IMG/VR virus record: IMGVR_UViG_3300037400_003633
Location: 1 to 64,000 of that record
Length of the DNA: 64,000 nucleotides
Direction: 5' to 3' (one strand)
DNA from: a virus
Lineage: Duplodnaviria; Caudoviricetes
Below, piece after piece: positions 6,112 to 57,556 of this stretch. The position numbers and the translations under genes were made by a program. The notes under the pieces were generated by a model. The model saw nothing but the letters and a program-made list of their open reading frames with translations. It had not been told where the DNA came from and did no database searches. Positions within the stretch are counted from its first letter, which is position 1, and every line of letters starts with the position of its first letter.

Positions 6112-7776
6112 TTATCCTCTTCCTTTGAAGTCCCAATAAATCTCGCAACTACAAGTTGTACCATCCACAGTAGCACTAATTACTACACCTATTCCTAATG
6201 CATTCTCTTCAGAACAACCCACTAGACCTCTTAAAAGAGTGCCAACCTTTGTTAGCGTTAATGTTATTGAATTAGCGCCCACACTTGGTACTATTTTAGC
6301 ATAGCTACTTGTATCTGGTTCAAGACCTTCATTCACAGTTCCTTTATTTTGAACAAAGGCGTTTACTATTTCAGCCCCATTCACATCACTATTACCGCTT
6401 GTTCCACCAGTAACATCACATGCTGGATTAATATCCATGTCACATCGTGCCACCCATTTATGGAGCGTACCCGCCCCACCACACGAAGAAGTGTCATCGA
6501 TGTAAGGTGCTGTGTAATTCATATCGTAAGAGCTAACTGTTATATCAGAAACTCTTGCTCCATTATATTCTGCATATACTTCAAATGTTGTGCTTCCTCC
6601 TGTATATACTGCTATATTGTTACTATCAAAAGTTAGACCAGCAGCTTTAAATTCAACTGATGCGCATGCTCCACCACCTTCTTGGGTAAAACATATACCA
6701 CTTGATGGCAATGGACAAGTGTCAAGAATATTGGTATAAGATTCGCCTTCGAATAATTGGCTTATTTCCAATGTACCATCTGTTGTGCATATTTGCCTCT
6801 CACTTGCTGATTTGTTTTGTTTTACAACACAGCAGATAATTCCATTATCACTTGAAGTACCATCACTTAATTCATAGTGTACTTGAACCCAAGAGTAAGT
6901 GCTGTCACAATAAACTGCCCCATTACTTGGCATTTTATGAACATCTGGATACTCGACTTGGTTTATAATAATACCAATCATTTCCATCTTTGTAACACTA
7001 CATGTAGGTGTAGGAGCAGATTGTGTCATGGTACAAGTACCGCAAGGATTACCGTTAACATATACTGTTATAGTTCCAGTTCTTTGACTTTGAGTTGCTG
7101 TAGCAGTAGCAGTTAGTCCACTACTTGTTACAGACGCTGTCAACCAGCTATCATCACTAGAAGCGAAAGTTACTTGGCGTCCGCAACCTTGTGTTGCAAC
7201 ATTTCCGAATGTTGCATTTCCTCCATCAGCCCCAATAGTTGCTGTTGATGAGAAACTAACTGCATTACAGTCACAAAGTACTCTTGATTGTTCAACTGTA
7301 ATAGTTAAGTTATTACAAGGACTTCCATTGTAAGAAATAGTTATGCTACCAGTTCTACCTGTAGTTGTATCCATATTTTCACTAACAGATATTGTCAAAG
7401 TGTCATGACTAGAGTTAAAATCAACGGTTATCCAATCGTAGCTGCCTCTTGAAGCTGTCAAGCCAGTTAAACTTCCAGTACAGTCTCCAGTCTTACTGAA
7501 CATTACTGTGCTAGAATCAGCCCCAGAACCAAACGATACTGACCTCTTACTTGCACTGAAGCCACTACACGTACAAGCAGTAGGGCTAGGTTGACACGTA
7601 GAACCAGAATATACAGTATATGTGCTAGTAGATGTGTTACCAGCATTATCAGTATATGTTACTGTATATTCTATATTTGCTGTTGTTGAATTTTGTGGGA
7701 AACGAAAACTTCCACCCCCTAAATCTTGAACAGTCCCACTATTTGGGTTTGTTGATGTTACATTCCAATTAGCCAT
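6112..7776 (-). CDS. Cys/Ser/Thr-rich BACON-domain protein, likely virion adhesin/decoration
   Basis: Two BACON-like units (DWITV...LTISVSEN...RTGSITISY...VEQ; SWLTA...RTGTITV...MTQ). Confidence 0.75.
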   Translation of the reverse strand: MANWNVTSTNPNSGTVQDLGGGSFRFPQNSTTANIEYTVTYTDNAGNTSTSTYTVYSGSTCQPSPTACTCSGFSASKRSVSFGSGADSSTVMFSKTGDCTGSLTGLTASRGSYDWITVDFNSSHDTLTISVSENMDTTTGRTGSITISYNGSPCNNLTITVEQSRVLCDCNAVSFSSTATIGADGGNATFGNVATQGCGRQVTFASSDDSWLTASVTSSGLTATATATQSQRTGTITVYVNGNPCGTCTMTQSAPTPTCSVTKMEMIGIIINQVEYPDVHKMPSNGAVYCDSTYSWVQVHYELSDGTSSDNGIICCVVKQNKSASERQICTTDGTLEISQLFEGESYTNILDTCPLPSSGICFTQEGGGACASVEFKAAGLTFDSNNIAVYTGGSTTFEVYAEYNGARVSDITVSSYDMNYTAPYIDDTSSCGGAGTLHKWVARCDMDINPACDVTGGTSGNSDVNGAEIVNAFVQNKGTVNEGLEPDTSSYAKIVPSVGANSITLTLTKVGTLLRGLVGCSEENALGIGVVISATVDGTTCSCEIYWDFKGRG

Positions 7777-8649: not shown

Positions 8650-8694
8650 AATTGGAGTAACGCTTTGTTATTCCAATTTTTTTTTGTATCTTTG
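8650..8694 (+). promoter_or_regulatory. terminator-promoter cassette
   Basis: Hairpin AATTGGAGTAA/TTATTCCAATT with TTTG in loop, N19, TATCTTTG. Confidence 0.75.
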
Positions 8695-34840: not shown

Positions 34841-34993
34841 ACGTTACTTTTTTTAAATCACAATATTTTTGAAGCCATGACTGGTTGTCTGTGAAGATAG
34901 CCAGTTATTTTTTTCGAAAAAAGTTCAGAAAAAGTTTGGTTAATCCAAATATTTTCCCTAACTTTGCCACGTGAAACTTAAACAATAATAGTT

Positions 34994-44327: not shown

Positions 44328-44837
44328 ATGGTAAACAAAGACAAAGTAAGGCAGATTTTCAGTATTGAACTATTGGAGGACAATGCCCAATATTTCAATC
44401 ATTATACTGATATGATTAAGTGCGGTCATCCCTGGAACGTTGTGTGCGAGTTAAGAAAGGTCAGCGAAAACGCAGAGTCAGACCTTGACCCTTACACCTA
44501 TGAGCAGATACTGGAGAGTGCCAAACAATTTAATGAGCGTATCGTATTCGACAATGGTGAATACTTGCTGACTGCCAATGACGCTATCATAGTCCTTTAC
44601 CAGTATGGTGATGTGGACGTATACGACTGGACTGGAGATAAACTGGAAATAAACGATGAAGTTATATGGCTCGACCCCGATGATGATGCAAGAGATTTAC
44701 GCAGGGTGTGGACTATCTATGATATAGTTAACGAAGAACTGGTTAAGATTGCTGACGATGCATCAGAAGCAGAGGTTGCACCAAATGAACTGGTTAAAGC
44801 CAGTAACGTGCTACACGTTGACATCATAATCAAATAG
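44328..44837 (+). CDS. hypothetical early protein
   Basis: 169-aa ORF ending TAG. Confidence 0.7.
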   Translation: MVNKDKVRQIFSIELLEDNAQYFNHYTDMIKCGHPWNVVCELRKVSENAESDLDPYTYEQILESAKQFNERIVFDNGEYLLTANDAIIVLYQYGDVDVYDWTGDKLEINDEVIWLDPDDDARDLRRVWTIYDIVNEELVKIADDASEAEVAPNELVKASNVLHVDIIIK

Positions 44838-44854
44838 ACTTAAATAAGTACAAA
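44837..44854 (+). repeat. polar 18-bp motif, copy 7
   Basis: GACTTAAATAAGTACAAA. Confidence 0.85.
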
Positions 44855-44907
44855 GTACTATATGAACTAGAGCTTTGTCATACTATCAATATTTTAAATG
44901 AATAAGT

Positions 44908-44945
44908 AAACCAGTATTAGTCGTGAGATTGGTACTGGTTTTATT
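44908..44945 (+). terminator. intrinsic terminator ending the early array
   Basis: AAACCAGTATTAGTC-GTGA-GATTGGTACTGGTTT + T run. Confidence 0.8.
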
Positions 44946-44953
44946 ATATACTG

Positions 44954-44971
44954 GACTTAAATAAGTACAAA
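44954..44971 (+). repeat. polar 18-bp motif, copy 8
   Basis: GACTTAAATAAGTACAAA. Confidence 0.85.
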
Positions 44972-45035
44972 TACTCTATATTCTTACACATTAAATAACT
45001 GGATAGATTTTATTTCACCTTATATAATATGTGCG

Positions 45036-45507
45036 CCAGTATAATATATGACAATATATGTTGTGCGTGTATGTTTCACGTGAAACGTATAGAATTTATT
45101 CATGTAAATCCATACGCCTATATACGTGTATATGCACCAGTATAGCACATTACACCAGTATAGACCAGCACATGTACTACAACCTATACCAGTTGATTCA
45201 CGTATCTGCACCAGTTGGCATACGCCAGTACAGTGAGCATAACAGACCAGTTTCTCCTGACAGACAAGCCACGATAATCAGGCTATCAGGAATCACATTG
45301 AGGACTGTACGCCAGTGTGTATATACGCACAGGTTATTTATATACCCCTTTATATTTCCCCAGACTGATTTACCCGCTGTAAAGATTTTTTACCACTGTA
45401 AATTGCATATAACTATATAGGGCTACTGGTTGTAAAGATTTATTATTTTCCCAGTATCTTTTGTTTGGCTACCAGTTGCCAGTTGTACCAGTCACCAGTA
45501 ATCCAGT
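45036..45507 (+). repeat. cluster of 14 co-oriented CCAGT pentamers
   Basis: At 45036, 45137, 45155, 45189, 45211, 45225, 45247, 45312, 45451, 45472, 45479, 45488, 45495, 45503. Confidence 0.75.
45072..45087. promoter_or_regulatory. parS: parS-like centromere site
   Basis: TGTTTCACGTGAAACG, 15/16 to consensus TGTTTCACGTGAAACA, in noncoding DNA. Confidence 0.6.
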
Positions 45508-45560
45508 AAAAACACTGGTTTGTGAACAGATGTTAATAAATTAAAACAAATTGGAAAATA

Positions 45561-45592
45561 TTTGCAGGAATCAATAAAAGTCGCTACATTTG
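45561..45592 (+). promoter_or_regulatory. Bacteroidota sigmaA-type promoter
   Basis: TTTG-N20-TACATTTG. Confidence 0.7.
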
Positions 45593-45624
45593 CACCCAGT
45601 TATTTATCATTTAAAATTAAAAGT

Positions 45625-47165: not shown

Positions 47166-47201
47166 GTGCTTAAAACTTTTTTCTTAAAAAAGCTTAAAAT
47201 A

Positions 47202-47233
47202 TTTGGTAGTATCAAAATAATACCTTATTTTTG
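47202..47233 (+). promoter_or_regulatory. Bacteroidota sigmaA-type promoter
   Basis: TTTG-N20-TATTTTTG. Confidence 0.65.
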
Positions 47234-47273
47234 TACCCGAAATAAGTTTATTAATCATTTAAAATTAAGCATT

Positions 47274-48023
47274 ATGAAACATCAATTAAGTTCAATCGTG
47301 TTCGGTAAGGGAGTTGCTAACAATGTAGAGCGCACAAGTGACGTTGCTGCTTATTTGGCTATGATTGCCAACTTTAAGCCACTGACCATTGAAGAAGAAA
47401 TCGAACTTGCCTATCGCATCCAAAATGGTGACAAGGCAGCAAAGGACACTCTGGTTAATCACAATCTTCGTGCTGTTGTTTCTATCGCTAAGAGTTATTC
47501 CTATTGTGGCGGTTGTCTTTCCCTGCTTGACCTTATCAATGAGGGAAACCAAGGACTTATCGAAGCAGCCGACCTTTATGACCCAACAATCGGCACTAAG
47601 TTTATGAGTTTTGCCGTTTCTTTCGTCCGCAAGTACATACTTGATGCACTGACCCACAAATCAAGAATGGTAGCCGACTACCATAAGGACACGCCAAACC
47701 GACATTCATCACTTGATGCACCAACCAATGACGATGCAGACACCACATTAGGCGACATCCTTTGCACATCAGTTGATGCAGAAGTTAGTCTTAACGACTC
47801 CCTTTCTACCGACTTGCTCCGAGTGCTTAACTCAATCCTGCAACCCAAGGAAGTAACAATCATTTGCACTATCTACGGAATAGGCACAACCCAAATGAGT
47901 AGAAAGACCATTGCAGAGAAAATGAATAAGACCGATGAACGCATCCGACAAATCATTGAGGGCGCAATAATCAAAGTACGAAAGAACGACCAAGCAATGA
48001 CCCTGCTAATGAAATATATCTAA
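47274..48023 (+). CDS. RNA polymerase sigma-70 family factor (RpoD/SigA-derived, region 3 shortened)
   Basis: Region 1.2 YL..I...PLTIEEEIELA, region 2 NLRAVVSIAK, DLINEGNQGLIEAA..YDP..GTKFMSFA, region 4 ERIRQI. Confidence 0.9.
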   Translation: MKHQLSSIVFGKGVANNVERTSDVAAYLAMIANFKPLTIEEEIELAYRIQNGDKAAKDTLVNHNLRAVVSIAKSYSYCGGCLSLLDLINEGNQGLIEAADLYDPTIGTKFMSFAVSFVRKYILDALTHKSRMVADYHKDTPNRHSSLDAPTNDDADTTLGDILCTSVDAEVSLNDSLSTDLLRVLNSILQPKEVTIICTIYGIGTTQMSRKTIAEKMNKTDERIRQIIEGAIIKVRKNDQAMTLLMKYI

Positions 48024-48041
48024 GCACAACAAACCATAATC

Positions 48042-48075
48042 AAGCCTGCTACAAACCAAGTGGCAGGCTTTTTTT
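48042..48075 (+). terminator. intrinsic terminator
   Basis: AAGCCTGC/GCAGGCTT arms + T run. Confidence 0.75.
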
Positions 48076-48078
48076 ATT

Positions 48079-48096
48079 GACTTAAATAAGTACAAG
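48079..48096 (+). repeat. polar 18-bp motif, copy 9
   Basis: GACTTAAATAAGTACAAG. Confidence 0.85.
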
Positions 48097-48268
48097 CCAC
48101 CATATTTCTATCCTGCAATATATAATAACATGCAAAATATGCACGGAAATAGCGTTTATTTCGCTCACAATCGCTTTGTACTATCTTTGTGGTTAACTAC
48201 CAAGGTAAACCACCAAAAACGCAATACGAGCCATTTATGAACGTTTTTAGCCAGTAACCAGTACAACA

Positions 48269-48444
48269 AACCAGTCAAGACACCTGATGCCTGACAATCA
48301 GGACACCAGTATAAACCAGTTAACAAAACTAACCAGTCAAGACACCTGATGCCTGACAATCAGGACACCAGTATAAACCAGTTAACAAAACTAACCAGTC
48401 AAGACACCTGATGCCTGACAATCAGGACACCAGTATAAACCAGT
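48269..48444 (+). repeat. 62-bp tandem repeat, about 2.8 identical copies
   Basis: Units start 48269, 48331, 48393; each has three CCAGT and a CCTGA-CAA-TCAGG hairpin. Confidence 0.95.
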
Positions 48445-48580
48445 AACCAGTTGAACCAATAGCCAAATAGATTCGATTCTAAGACGTTTTAAGTGGTTTG
48501 GTGATAACTTATCAATCAAACACACTAACAAACCAATGTGAGGGAAACAAAGGGCAAATTTCAGCCTTTAATAATATATC

Positions 48581-48612
48581 TATTATATTGTTACTTCGTA
48601 ACAACATAGTAG
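48581..48612. repeat. 32-bp palindrome-centred element, copy 1
   Basis: TATTATATTGTTAC-TTC-GTAACAACATAGTAG. Confidence 0.85.
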
Positions 48613-48916
48613 ATATGTTATAAAGCCAAATTAGCCAAGGAAGGCACAAAAAATACAGTTGTAAAGATTTTTTTATCAACCAAAACGCATATAACTATAT
48701 AGAGGATTGAGCTGTAAAGAGTTTTTACTTTTCATTTATCACTGTATTGATTTGGCTTGCAGGACACAAACCAAACAAGCATTTTTTACGCATTACTGAA
48801 AACCTGTAAAATAGCCCATTTTGTAAACTCAGAGATTACAATTTTGCCTTATTATATATTTTCAATGACTGAAAATAAAGAAAAATGCACTTTTTGCGAA
48901 AAAAAATCGTTTTTTT

Positions 48917-48948
48917 CTTGCAGGAATGAAAAATAATGCCTACCTTTG
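48917..48948 (+). promoter_or_regulatory. Bacteroidota sigmaA-type promoter
   Basis: CTTG-N20-TACCTTTG. Confidence 0.7.
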
Positions 48949-49057
48949 CATCGTCAATCAGACAAAAAGAGTTCTTTGAGTAGTTGACACAACAAGGTTT
49001 TAGTTAACGTAGCCTATCTGATAGGCTGCAAATATTCACTTTTAATTCATATACGAT

Positions 49058-53297: not shown

Positions 53298-53317
53298 CTT
53301 ATATATAAATTTTGACT

Positions 53318-56300
53318 ATGATTTATATTAAATTATTTGAAACTCATAATGAGTATGAGTCTTATGTTGAAAGTGGGTTAACAAGACCAAATCTATCAGT
53401 ATGTAAAGACATACCAAAAGAGGTACATTATAATCCACGAAGGTGTGAAGAAACGACTTCATATGAAATAATTGGAGAGCCATCATACCCATCGACTGTT
53501 TTAGCTACTGCGACATCTTTTGTAATCAGTTTTGAGTATAAAAGGACTGACATCAATTACAGATGCATTAAATCTGTGACTCAAGGCAGTGATTCTGTTG
53601 AAGTCATTATAACGGAAAATCCTTCAACTGAAGAAAGGGTTGTCAGTGGAAATTGTAATTATCATGGTTTATCAATACCATATAGTGTTACTCAAGAAGG
53701 GTTATCTTATTCAGAAAGTTATTTGACATTTGATGTATTAACTTCAGGAACTATAAATTGGGTATCACAAAGTGGCGTAACTAAGACCATTTCATACAGT
53801 AAAGATTATGGTGAAACTTGGGTTGAAATAACGTCATCAGCAGATGGGTCTGCCATTAATGTGAATGCTGGTGACAAATTATTGATTAAGGGTAACAATG
53901 ACCAATATTCTATCGCTAAAGATGCTGGTTCTCGTTTTAGCGGGGATACTGCAAGATATGACGTATATGGTAATATAATGTCTCTTATTGGTGGTGATAA
54001 TTTTAAGAGTCTCAAGTCATTCAACGGAAAAACATGGGTATTTCATAACTTATTCAACGGTTCTGGTATAAAGTCAGCAGAGAATTTAATATTGCCAGTA
54101 ACTGAATTGACTGAATGTTGTTATCGTGCTATGTTTGCTGGTCTTTCAAATAATACTGGTGATAAGATATTAACTAAAGCTCCAAAAATTATTCCAGCAA
54201 CTACAATGGCAGTAAGTGCATGTTGCTACATGTTCCAAAATACGCTTATAACAGTTGCACCTGAACTTCCATGTAATGTATTGGCAGATTATTGTTATTA
54301 CAGGATGTTTTTCACTTCAAGTATAAATTACTTGAAATGTTTAGCAACAGATATTTCTGCGACTCAGTGTACATATGAATGGTGTAGAACAGTACCAAAA
54401 ACAGGTACATTCATTAAGCATCCATCAATGAATGATTGGGCAATAAACGATAAAAGTGGAATCCCACCAACTGATTGGACTGTAATAGACGATGTTTATG
54501 AAAAGTCAAACAGAAGCCTTAACACCTGGACATATGACAATAATGAAATTGAAGTGCCGTATTCCATCAATGCAGTAGACGGTCATTCAGCAAGTTATGC
54601 AAAGGGTACATTTGATTTTGAAACAAGTGTTAACCTTGATGAGTCTCAGCCAACTTATTTATGGTTTCAGCATGCAGACCAAACAGCAGACATCTATGTG
54701 GATGATACGAAGGTAGAAACCCACTGGGGAGGATACAATGCATTTTTTACTGACATATCAAATCATGTTCATAGTGGTACTAACGAAATAAGAGTTTCAT
54801 TGTGTAATACAACAAGAAATACACTTGCTCCAGCATCTGGTGATTTCAATTTCAATGCTACGTTGGGTAAGGTTAAACTATTAACAAGTCCTGTATTACC
54901 ATCAATGAATTATGGCTATGATGGATTCCACATCACATCAACTGTATCTTCAGCGTCTGCGACAATCAATGTTAAGACAAGCATACCAACAGGTGCAACT
55001 GTTGTGTGTAGTATCAGTGGCACTAACTGTAATTACAGTGAAACTAGTGCAAGCACTGGTTCTGAAATGATATTCACGACAACTATTGCAAATCCTCATC
55101 TTTGGAATGGTACAATTGACCCATATTTGTATATTGTAAAACTTGATGTATATTATAATGATGAATTATATCATAGTTACACAAGACCTTATGGATTGAG
55201 ATTCTATGAATATGTAATAAATGATACTGTAAAATATGGTACGGTATCTAATCCTTACACAGGTTTCTTGCTTAATGGACAGCCATATCTATTGAGAGGT
55301 GTTTGTATGCATGATGACGTTGAAGGAAGGGCAAATGCATTGTTGGATAGTGACTACGTACAAGAGTTCAATATAATTCAAGAACTTGGATGTAATTTCT
55401 TACGTCTTGCTCACTATCCTCATCCAAAGGAGGTATATGACAAGTGTGACGAATTAGGTATAGTTGTACAGACTGAAGTACCTTGTGTTGATAAACTACA
55501 AATGTCATTACCATCTGATTACTATGAGCACTTGAACGTACAATATGCAGATATGGTTAATCAGCATTATAACCACCCATGTATTATGTTCTGGGGACTA
55601 GGCAATGAGGCTAAAATTACTGATAGTGACGAAGGTAGGGAGTTTGCCAAAACCAAGCTTGAAGGTTATACAGCATTAATAAAAAATCTTGATTCAGAAC
55701 GTTTGGTTGGTATTGTTGCACACGCCCTTATTGACCCAAGTTCATATTTCGGAAATCCAGATATTGATTGGTTCGGATGCAACCATTATGTTGGATGGTA
55801 TCAAAGTAGAACATCAAGAAATCCTTCATCTGTTATAAACCGTTGCCTATCAAGTACAACTACAGAGTTAGGAAAAGCATTTGCATTATCAGAATATGGA
55901 GCTGGTGGCACACAAAATTGTCATTCTGAAACACCAAGTGATACAACTGATAAAGCATCAGCTGGAGCTAGACATGATATAGAATATCAAATGTGGATAC
56001 ATGAAGGACATATTGCTGCAATTAGAAATTATCCACAACTTATATTTACATCATTATGGCAATTATTCGATATTGCAGTGTCTTCCAGGGATGAAGGATA
56101 TACTATATGTATAGACGGAGAAAATACATATATTGACGACAATTTGAGATACATAAATGACAAAGGTATTGTGGAAAGAGACCACACAACCAAAAAAGAT
56201 ACATTCTATTTGTATAAGGCTGAGTGGAATACTGTTGATACATTTGTACACATTTGCGGAAAAAGTTTCTCAAAGACAACAAATAGGGTAATAAAATGTT

Positions 56301-57556
56301 ATACAAATGAAAGTGGTACGTTTACGCTGAAAGTAAACAATAACGTAGTAGCCACAGCAACATCATCAAATCATATTGTAACGTTTGCAGCACAGAATTT
56401 CAATAATGGTGATGTAATAGTAGTTGAAGGAAATACTACATCTGACACATTTACATTTATTTGTTCTCCAACAAGTACATATGAAATAGTAGGAACTCCT
56501 TCATACCCAAGTACAATTGAAGGTGATGATGTATCATTTGATATAACAGTTAATTACAGAAGGAGTGATACGGATTCAGCTTGTACAGAAACTGTAACAA
56601 CTGGAACTGATATAATAACTGTTGAATGTGGTGAAAACCCAAGTACTACTGATAGTAGGGCTATAAGTGGTACTGTTGATTATCACGGTAACACCATTGA
56701 ATATGATGTGACACAAGATGTTGGTGGCTTCAAGTTTAGAGGGGTATATGATGATAGTTCAATAAATAAAGTAGCCTGTGACAATAACCCAACATTAACA
56801 TCAGGAGAAACAAAGCCTAACGGATACACAGCATCTGCAATGACATCGGCAGAAATAGGAAATTGTGTAACAACAATAGGAGCTGATACGTTCAGAGATT
56901 GTAGCGGATTAACAAGTGTAACAATACCAACAAGCGTTACAAGCATCGGAGATAATGCTATAAGAAGTTGCACATCATTAAAATCTGTAACAATTCCAGG
57001 AAGTGTAACAAGTATAGGTTCAGCTGCATTCCGTTTCTCTACAGGGCTTACAAGCATAAGCATACCTGACAGTGTAACAAGTATCGGTAACGAAGCTTTC
57101 AGCTACTGTTATAGCCTTAAAAACACAACAATAGGTAGCGGTATAACAACTATCAGTGAAAGTGCATTCTATAATTGTAGAAAACTTGCAAGTATAACAA
57201 TTCCAAGCAATGTTACAAGTATCAGTGATAATGCGTTCAGAGATTGTAGCGTATTAACAAGTGTAACAATACCAACAAGTGTTACAAGCATCGGAGATAG
57301 GGCATTCTATAATTGTAAAGCACTTACAAGTATTACAATCCCTGATAGTGTTACAAGTATTGGTGGTAGTGCTTTCAATACTTGCAGTGCTCTCACAAGC
57401 GTGACAGTTAATGCTGTAACACCTCCAACACTTGGAACTTCAGTATTCAACACAACCAATGACTGCCCAATATATGTTCCGAGTGGTAGTGTAAGTGCAT
57501 ATAAGTCAGCAACCAATTGGAGCAATTATGCAAGTAGAATACAAGCAATACCTTAA
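53318..57556 (+). CDS. chimeric putative virion protein: LRR-like region + GH2 glycoside hydrolase + BspA-type LRR_5
   Basis: GH2 motifs LRGVCMHDD, NFLRLAHYPH, NHPCIMFWGLGNE, LSEYGAGG; C-terminal repeats LTSVTIP.SVTSIG..AF..C; APELP..LA..CY..MF repeats. Confidence 0.85.
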   Translation: MIYIKLFETHNEYESYVESGLTRPNLSVCKDIPKEVHYNPRRCEETTSYEIIGEPSYPSTVLATATSFVISFEYKRTDINYRCIKSVTQGSDSVEVIITENPSTEERVVSGNCNYHGLSIPYSVTQEGLSYSESYLTFDVLTSGTINWVSQSGVTKTISYSKDYGETWVEITSSADGSAINVNAGDKLLIKGNNDQYSIAKDAGSRFSGDTARYDVYGNIMSLIGGDNFKSLKSFNGKTWVFHNLFNGSGIKSAENLILPVTELTECCYRAMFAGLSNNTGDKILTKAPKIIPATTMAVSACCYMFQNTLITVAPELPCNVLADYCYYRMFFTSSINYLKCLATDISATQCTYEWCRTVPKTGTFIKHPSMNDWAINDKSGIPPTDWTVIDDVYEKSNRSLNTWTYDNNEIEVPYSINAVDGHSASYAKGTFDFETSVNLDESQPTYLWFQHADQTADIYVDDTKVETHWGGYNAFFTDISNHVHSGTNEIRVSLCNTTRNTLAPASGDFNFNATLGKVKLLTSPVLPSMNYGYDGFHITSTVSSASATINVKTSIPTGATVVCSISGTNCNYSETSASTGSEMIFTTTIANPHLWNGTIDPYLYIVKLDVYYNDELYHSYTRPYGLRFYEYVINDTVKYGTVSNPYTGFLLNGQPYLLRGVCMHDDVEGRANALLDSDYVQEFNIIQELGCNFLRLAHYPHPKEVYDKCDELGIVVQTEVPCVDKLQMSLPSDYYEHLNVQYADMVNQHYNHPCIMFWGLGNEAKITDSDEGREFAKTKLEGYTALIKNLDSERLVGIVAHALIDPSSYFGNPDIDWFGCNHYVGWYQSRTSRNPSSVINRCLSSTTTELGKAFALSEYGAGGTQNCHSETPSDTTDKASAGARHDIEYQMWIHEGHIAAIRNYPQLIFTSLWQLFDIAVSSRDEGYTICIDGENTYIDDNLRYINDKGIVERDHTTKKDTFYLYKAEWNTVDTFVHICGKSFSKTTNRVIKCYTNESGTFTLKVNNNVVATATSSNHIVTFAAQNFNNGDVIVVEGNTTSDTFTFICSPTSTYEIVGTPSYPSTIEGDDVSFDITVNYRRSDTDSACTETVTTGTDIITVECGENPSTTDSRAISGTVDYHGNTIEYDVTQDVGGFKFRGVYDDSSINKVACDNNPTLTSGETKPNGYTASAMTSAEIGNCVTTIGADTFRDCSGLTSVTIPTSVTSIGDNAIRSCTSLKSVTIPGSVTSIGSAAFRFSTGLTSISIPDSVTSIGNEAFSYCYSLKNTTIGSGITTISESAFYNCRKLASITIPSNVTSISDNAFRDCSVLTSVTIPTSVTSIGDRAFYNCKALTSITIPDSVTSIGGSAFNTCSALTSVTVNAVTPPTLGTSVFNTTNDCPIYVPSGSVSAYKSATNWSNYASRIQAIP

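Follow-up and report, generated by a model that had tools for sequence, protein, structure and literature searches.

A host-type parS site upstream of a phage helicase gene as a putative loading site for host ParB

Bacillus phage phi29 holds five parS sites that are used with the host partition protein Spo0J, and its relative Nf does likewise, as stated in PMC2731898 (citing Meijer et al., 2005); the same text has phi29 using Spo0J–parS to enter the prespore. It is the only virulent phage with experimental support for using a host partition protein through an orphan parS, the purpose being tied to sporulation, and our literature search found no paper on phage orphan parS outside phi29. The chromosomal parS consensus is TGTTNCACGTGNAACA (Livny et al., 2007, cited by PMC10197239). 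Other phages with a centromere on an extrachromosomal genome, such as the plasmid prophages P1 and N15 and some mycobacteriophages, have their own ParA and ParB with a private parS. ParB-family clamps are also loaded at palindromes near promoters, as in the KorB–OB pair of the IncP plasmid RK2, and ParB-dependent repression near parS is described for Pseudomonas aeruginosa in a preprint (bioRxiv 10.1101/151340).

The locus described here lies in a window of 64 kb, the first part of an 86,559-base IMG/VR record (G000; CheckV completeness 29%). It resembles phi29 in combining a non-integrating phage without parA or parB, a host-type parS and few sites (five in phi29, 1–3 here). It differs in that phi29, a podovirus of 19 kb with protein-primed replication, infects a spore former and has its sites serve spore entrapment, whereas the present phage is a tailed jumbo phage of ~300 kb; also, the jumbo-phage sites stand beside or inside helicase and sigma genes, and the use of host ParB is here a prediction. 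With the chromosomal ParB(Spo0J)–ParA(Soj) system the locus shares the 16-bp palindrome and its tolerated variants as found on Bacteroidales chromosomes near gidA, but here a phage carries the site, at a distance from parAB operons, and neither protein was found among its genes. It likewise resembles the centromeres of P1, N15 and the mycobacteriophages, although partition genes like theirs were not found in the records searched. RK2 KorB and P. aeruginosa ParB are encoded by the replicon or chromosome on which they act, whereas regulation by a host protein is hypothetical here. The principle of an orphan host parS is already known from phi29. New in comparison are the jumbo tailed phage, the likely host among the non-sporulating Bacteroidales and the placement at helicase and sigma genes, hence presumably the purpose.

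The phage, the site and its surroundings

Matches to Pfam and PHROG depict a replication and early region with two helicases, homing endonucleases, a nucleotidyltransferase and a Lon-like protease. Relatives of the helicase number thousands in metagenomes, some of them on contigs of 300–430 kb. A large terminase is encoded by the nearest IMG/VR relative (G001) and by a 380-kb relative (G005), and two relatives, G003 (295,155 bases) and G005 (379,916 bases), are classed as complete with direct terminal repeats. From the terminase in relatives and the size of the complete ones, the window's record is concluded to be a fragment of a tailed jumbo phage of ~300 kb. A blastn search of the region against INPHARED phages gave no match.

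The palindrome TGTTTCACGTGAAACG agrees with the parS consensus at 15 of 16 positions, as originally predicted, with its sole mismatch to TGTTTCACGTGAAACA at outer base 16, and it lies in noncoding DNA 553 bp upstream of the UvrD-like helicase gene (Table 1). When the whole record was scanned, this was the only parS match with at most one mismatch. The earlier chance estimate of about 1e-3 per 64 kb was borne out by recalculation from base composition, which gave 1.2e-3. Such a single 15/16 site is rare, yet not decisive across a scan of many windows.

Table 1. Features at and around the parS site (positions in the 64-kb window)
Feature	Position	Strand	Remarks
Noncoding gap, 787 bp	44838..45624	+	Separates the helicase gene from the final gene (44328-44837) of the long plus-strand array
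Two GACTTAAATAAGTACAAA copies	44837-44854, 44954-44971	+	Flank a terminator-like hairpin, arms 44902-44916 / 44933-44947
parS site	45072-45087		
CCAGT/ACCAGT word cluster and two TGTAAAGA boxes	45130..45520	+	13 CCAGT in 45000-45500
Bacteroidota-type promoter of the helicase gene, TTTG-N20-TAcaTTTG	45561..45592	+	~490 bp downstream of parS
UvrD/PcrA-like SF1 helicase, 501 aa	45625..47130	+	Marker gene for finding relatives
Phage sigma-70-family factor, regions 1.2, 2 and 4	47166..48023	+	Orthologue in the 52–57% clade contains parS or precedes it
Paralogous noncoding gap without parS	48024..49057	+	Motif as in the parS gap, three tandem 62-bp repeats with ACCAGT words, TGTAAAGA boxes and a TAccTTTG promoter

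The gap that holds the site, at which the long plus-strand array of small genes ends, is real, though larger than the 0.7 kb given for it in the original prediction. Its elements follow one another as two GACTTAAATAAGTACAAA copies with a hairpin, parS, the CCAGT cluster with two TGTAAAGA boxes, and the Bacteroidota-type promoter, so that the site does stand, as had been noted, between the polar-motif copies upstream and the CCAGT words on its downstream side. The cluster and its TGTAAAGA boxes are candidate regulator sites or origin-like iterons. In most relatives examined, the helicase likewise follows a gap of about this size, and alignment found the architecture kept but not the sequence; the GACTTAAATAAGTACAAA motif and the hairpin are conserved in that alignment. 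The palindrome was also considered as a terminator, which the absence of a T-run after it rules out, and an Rfam scan of 44–50 kb returned only sub-threshold chance matches, leaving the gap without a known RNA family. The half site reported earlier at 34968 is a 10-bp CACGTGAAAC immediately 3' of a TAacTTTG promoter box, in a promoter leader, and is not a parS.

The second gap holds a CCAGT cluster paralogous to that of the parS gap (48250–48450). Here three tandem 62-bp repeats (48265–48450) each have three ACCAGT words and a CCTGA..TCAGG hairpin, of which a degenerate copy is present in the parS gap at ~45256–45292. These repeats are possibly iterons or regulator sites.

Partition and lysogeny genes were sought in the window's own record (G000, 29% complete), in G001 and in the complete G003 and G005. 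In all four, the ParB_N domain (PF02195) was not found, a full-length Bacteroidales ParB homologue gave no match at E <= 10, ParA-type AAA_31 stayed below the curated cut-off, with a single weak match in G001, and searches for a tyrosine integrase were negative. The lack of parA and parB first noted for the window thus extends, by profile and homologue searches alike, to the whole 86.5-kb record and to these relatives. A self-contained ParABS cassette, with parA and parB next to the centromere, was absent from the records searched. None of parA, parB and integrase, which a phi29-type phage would lack, turned up in G000 (at 29% completeness) or in the complete G003 and G005, and the latter two, of 295 and 380 kb, hold 2–3 parS sites each. 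Since neither ParB nor ParA turned up in 86.5 kb and in the complete relatives, the site would work only with host proteins.

Conservation of the site among relatives

The original prediction was made to depend on conservation in relatives, and a scan of these found parS kept in 11 other lineages (helicase 52–78% identical), as canonical or one-off sites near the helicase/sigma module. In the closer lineages, the site lies in the same gap, 404–569 bp upstream of the helicase. The closest relatives, G001 and G002 (helicase 77%; loci L002/L003), have a perfect 16/16 parS 486 bp upstream of the helicase start, L288 (71%) has a perfect one at -404, L129 and L269 (68%) both have TGTTCCACGTGAAACA at -569 despite differing flanks, and L289 (61%) has CGTTTCACGTGAAACA at -487. 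L268 (66%) holds three near-sites; two of them have a mismatch within the central CACGTG, and the third is CGTTTCACGTGAAACA, just after a sigma gene. In the 52–57% clade the position has shifted: in L131, G003 and G004, a pair of sites ~500 bp apart has one member inside the sigma gene and one just past the sigma terminator. Of the two sites of L291, one is within the helicase gene (10608) and the other follows a sigma gene, and the fragment G155 has one site. In the more remote G005 (helicase 35%), three sites lie 15–27 kb from the helicase, the two inspected being intergenic. The variant at the outer base of the window's site is also seen in G004, L289, L291 and L268, and that position therefore seems tolerated.

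In a site-anchored comparison between lineages, the 16-mer is 93% identical, against 33% for the flanks of +-40 bp, as little as random sequence of this composition would give. The clade loci contain seven exact TGTTNCACGTGNAACA in 166 kb against 6.8e-4 expected, and no site occurs in 34 records whose helicase relatives are all distant (<=43% identity, ~2 Mb in total). Relatives with exact matches are L002/L003, L288, L129, L269, L131, G003, G004, G155 and L291. To judge from these alignments, the 16-mer is kept in the clade by selection and not by neutral descent. A chance match without function could be argued from numbers alone, as 1.2e-3 per window implies hundreds of 15/16 matches over ~250,000 windows; against this, the 16-mer is at the same place in five lineages with randomised flanks, and six further lineages have sites close by. 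We regard chance as extremely improbable, conservation having effectively refuted it, and take the site to be beyond chance because it is conserved in relatives.

The site is not universal in the clade. No site was found within +-10 kb in L267, L130, L270 and L290, although L267 has a possible decayed parS remnant at the homologous place. Together with L268, which has near-sites only, these four lineages indicate that parS is dispensable or mobile in the clade.

The placement of the sites bears on a further reading, in which host ParB acts as a regulator, its clamps spreading from parS to silence the helicase and sigma promoters, much like KorB on RK2 or chromosomal ParB at promoters close to parS in Pseudomonas, and so tying replication and middle transcription to the state of the host. 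In the lineages with sites, these are within ~0.4–4 kb of the helicase and sigma genes or inside them, and the helicase promoter of the window is as near as Table 1 gives; a precedent is that phi29 sites for the host protein Spo0A suppress the lytic cycle (PMC2731898). Less compatible are the second site of G001 and G002, 11 kb off beside a tRNA gene, and the sites of G005 at 15–27 kb from its helicase. On balance, we consider regulation as the main function unlikely.

Several smaller observations concern the sites in relatives. The in-gene parS of sigma encodes ..FDVSRGT.. in region 2 (L212 [G003:127562-130577, minus strand, ~2030-2015], L131:12219 and G004:3696), and a sigma paralogue of L268 has the similar motif FDTTRGN in wholly different codons; a search of the window's own sigma gene for an in-gene parS found none, the best match having 5 mismatches. 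The second perfect parS of G001 and G002, located 11,118 bp upstream of the first, has a terminator hairpin on one side and a tRNA-Leu(UAA) gene on the other; in L005 it occupies 1501–1516 (G002:3880), two bases before the tRNA (L005:1518-1608). Also, parS is near mid-genome in both complete relatives, at 129062/129566 of 295,155 in G003 (44%) and at 183604–195084 of 379,916 in G005 (48–51%), which is just a hint from two cases whose ends may be assembly artefacts. The GC skew of G003 tracks gene orientation and gave no origin signal.

The likely host and loading of its ParB

The promoters and the relatives of one protein point to a rumen Bacteroidales as the most likely host. The Bacteroidota promoter consensus TTTG-N17-21-TAnnTTTG has 32 matches in the window against 2.5 expected, an excess from which it follows that host RNA polymerase may read much of this region. 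Such promoters precede most genes of the plus-strand array (for example at 8664, 23031, 34935, 45561 and 47202). The protein, of 1414 aa (53312–57556), is a GH2 glycosidase fused to BspA-type leucine-rich repeats; its GH2 part is 60–69% identical to proteins from rumen MAGs, mostly of Bacteroidales/Bacteroidia with few from Kiritimatiellae and Verrucomicrobia, and its gene is probably host-derived.

Exact TGTTNCACGTGNAACA occurs in 85 of 121 sampled Bacteroidales genomes, against 0 for the reversed control pattern. Mostly there are one or two exact sites per genome, often as pairs with ~1.9 kb between them; the sites of the single pair that was examined (L259, G010:C16:232583-235598) flank gidA/mnmG, a classical origin-proximal gene, and adjoin ybeY, with the parA–parB operon on another contig. 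Candidate-host genomes of this order encode a ParA–ParB operon with a full ParB of N, HTH and C domains. The variants TGTTCCACGTGGAACA and TGTTTCACGTGAAACA occur on host chromosomes and phages alike, positions 5 and 12 varying in both (T/C and A/G).

These findings lead us to propose that the parS site loads the chromosomal ParB of the host cell, a reading to which we give a probability of roughly 0.7 on comparative evidence. It is preferred because the phage parS is host-like and varies in the host pattern, is under selection in lineages, is accompanied by no ParB found in the phage and is matched by a ParB in the likely host. Against it, it is not evident why a lytic-looking jumbo phage would need partition, the parS of the window departs from the consensus at one base, the host is itself inferred, and a ParB may lie elsewhere in this phage, whose record is about 29% complete. 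The original prediction went further in having the phage borrow host ParABS together with SMC. Its ParB part is taken as the best reading, given the conserved site, the parAB genes not found in the phages and a host order with the same parS and a ParA–ParB pair, but recruitment of SMC by ParB is unsupported in this host group: SMC_hinge (PF06470) had no match in three candidate hosts (G008, G010, G011) or in the Bacteroides thetaiotaomicron control, which is a weak negative as the Caulobacter control also gave none, and a Hi-C study agrees in that known condensin was not found in two Bacteroidetes (PMC10197239).

In the proposed mechanism, host ParB, a CTP-dependent DNA clamp, would bind the phage genome at the 16-mer loading site and could spread over the adjacent 1–2 kb, covering the helicase promoter. 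Host ParA would then position or partition the non-integrated phage genome with the host origin region during delayed lysis, that is, in a carrier or pseudolysogenic state, and replicating phage DNA might also draw ParB away from the one or two sites that the host itself has. As gains to the phage, partition, titration and silencing may all apply, as they are non-exclusive, and we would tentatively rank them in that order. Bacteroidales do not form spores, and any segregation role would therefore concern dividing cells.

Alternatively, ParB might be bound for titration or take-over, with dozens of phage copies depleting it and disturbing origin segregation, replication control or division in the host. 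The low site number of Bacteroidales genomes fits this, as a replicating phage with 1–3 sites would soon outnumber them, and so does the failure to find an integrase or a partition ATPase in the phage records searched. Many copies would be expected of a decoy, though, and most lineages hold only one or two; the constant position next to the helicase/sigma module hints at a local role. Titration as the prime function thus appears rather unlikely.

parS on other viruses and wider meaning

Exact TGTTTCACGTGAAACA is present in at least 119 IMG/VR viral stretches (L008–L126), compared with 2 for ACAAAGTGCACTTTGT, the reversed palindrome of equal composition that served as control. Among the 119 listed parS loci, a ParB homologue is nearby in 1 and a ParA homologue in 0, and 19 of 22 whole parS-bearing records had no ParB_N match at E <= 0.01. 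This excess weighs against the idea that the palindrome is an operator or origin element of a phage DNA-binding protein unrelated to ParB, its identity with parS being coincidental. The CCAGT and TGTAAAGA repeats in the gap do suggest phage-specific binding proteins, and many small phage ORFs are without assigned function. A private protein would leave unexplained, though, a parS match over 16 positions (15/16 in the window) with variants at positions 5 and 12 as in host sites, and the viral excess over the control points to a shared host factor rather than to many private ones. We hold a private protein to be very unlikely.

Loading of host ParB, combined with silencing, could make parS a switch, in which ParB–CTP clamps silence the replication and middle-transcription module while ParA carries a quiescent 300-kb genome to both daughters. 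This is a speculative extension that we consider doubtful. If true, a lytic-looking phage would gain a heritable carrier state without an integrase, a repressor or partition genes, and, given the spread of exact parS among viral stretches relative to the control, the switch could represent a general cross-phylum alternative to lysogeny.

More broadly, the jumbo-phage sites and the viral parS excess suggest that centromere mimicry is a widespread strategy beyond spore entrapment. Its most plausible wider function would be the persistence of non-integrated genomes in dividing cells, which bears on how lytic-looking gut and rumen phages stably coexist with their hosts.

One of the parS-bearing viral stretches, L013 (IMGVR_UViG_3300045988_035191; 12.3 kb), has four perfect parS at 6545, 6579, 9223 and 9574. 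A Phi29 major capsid protein, a connector and a Gp16 ATPase identify it as a podovirus of the phi29 type, an uncultured parallel to the published phi29 case.
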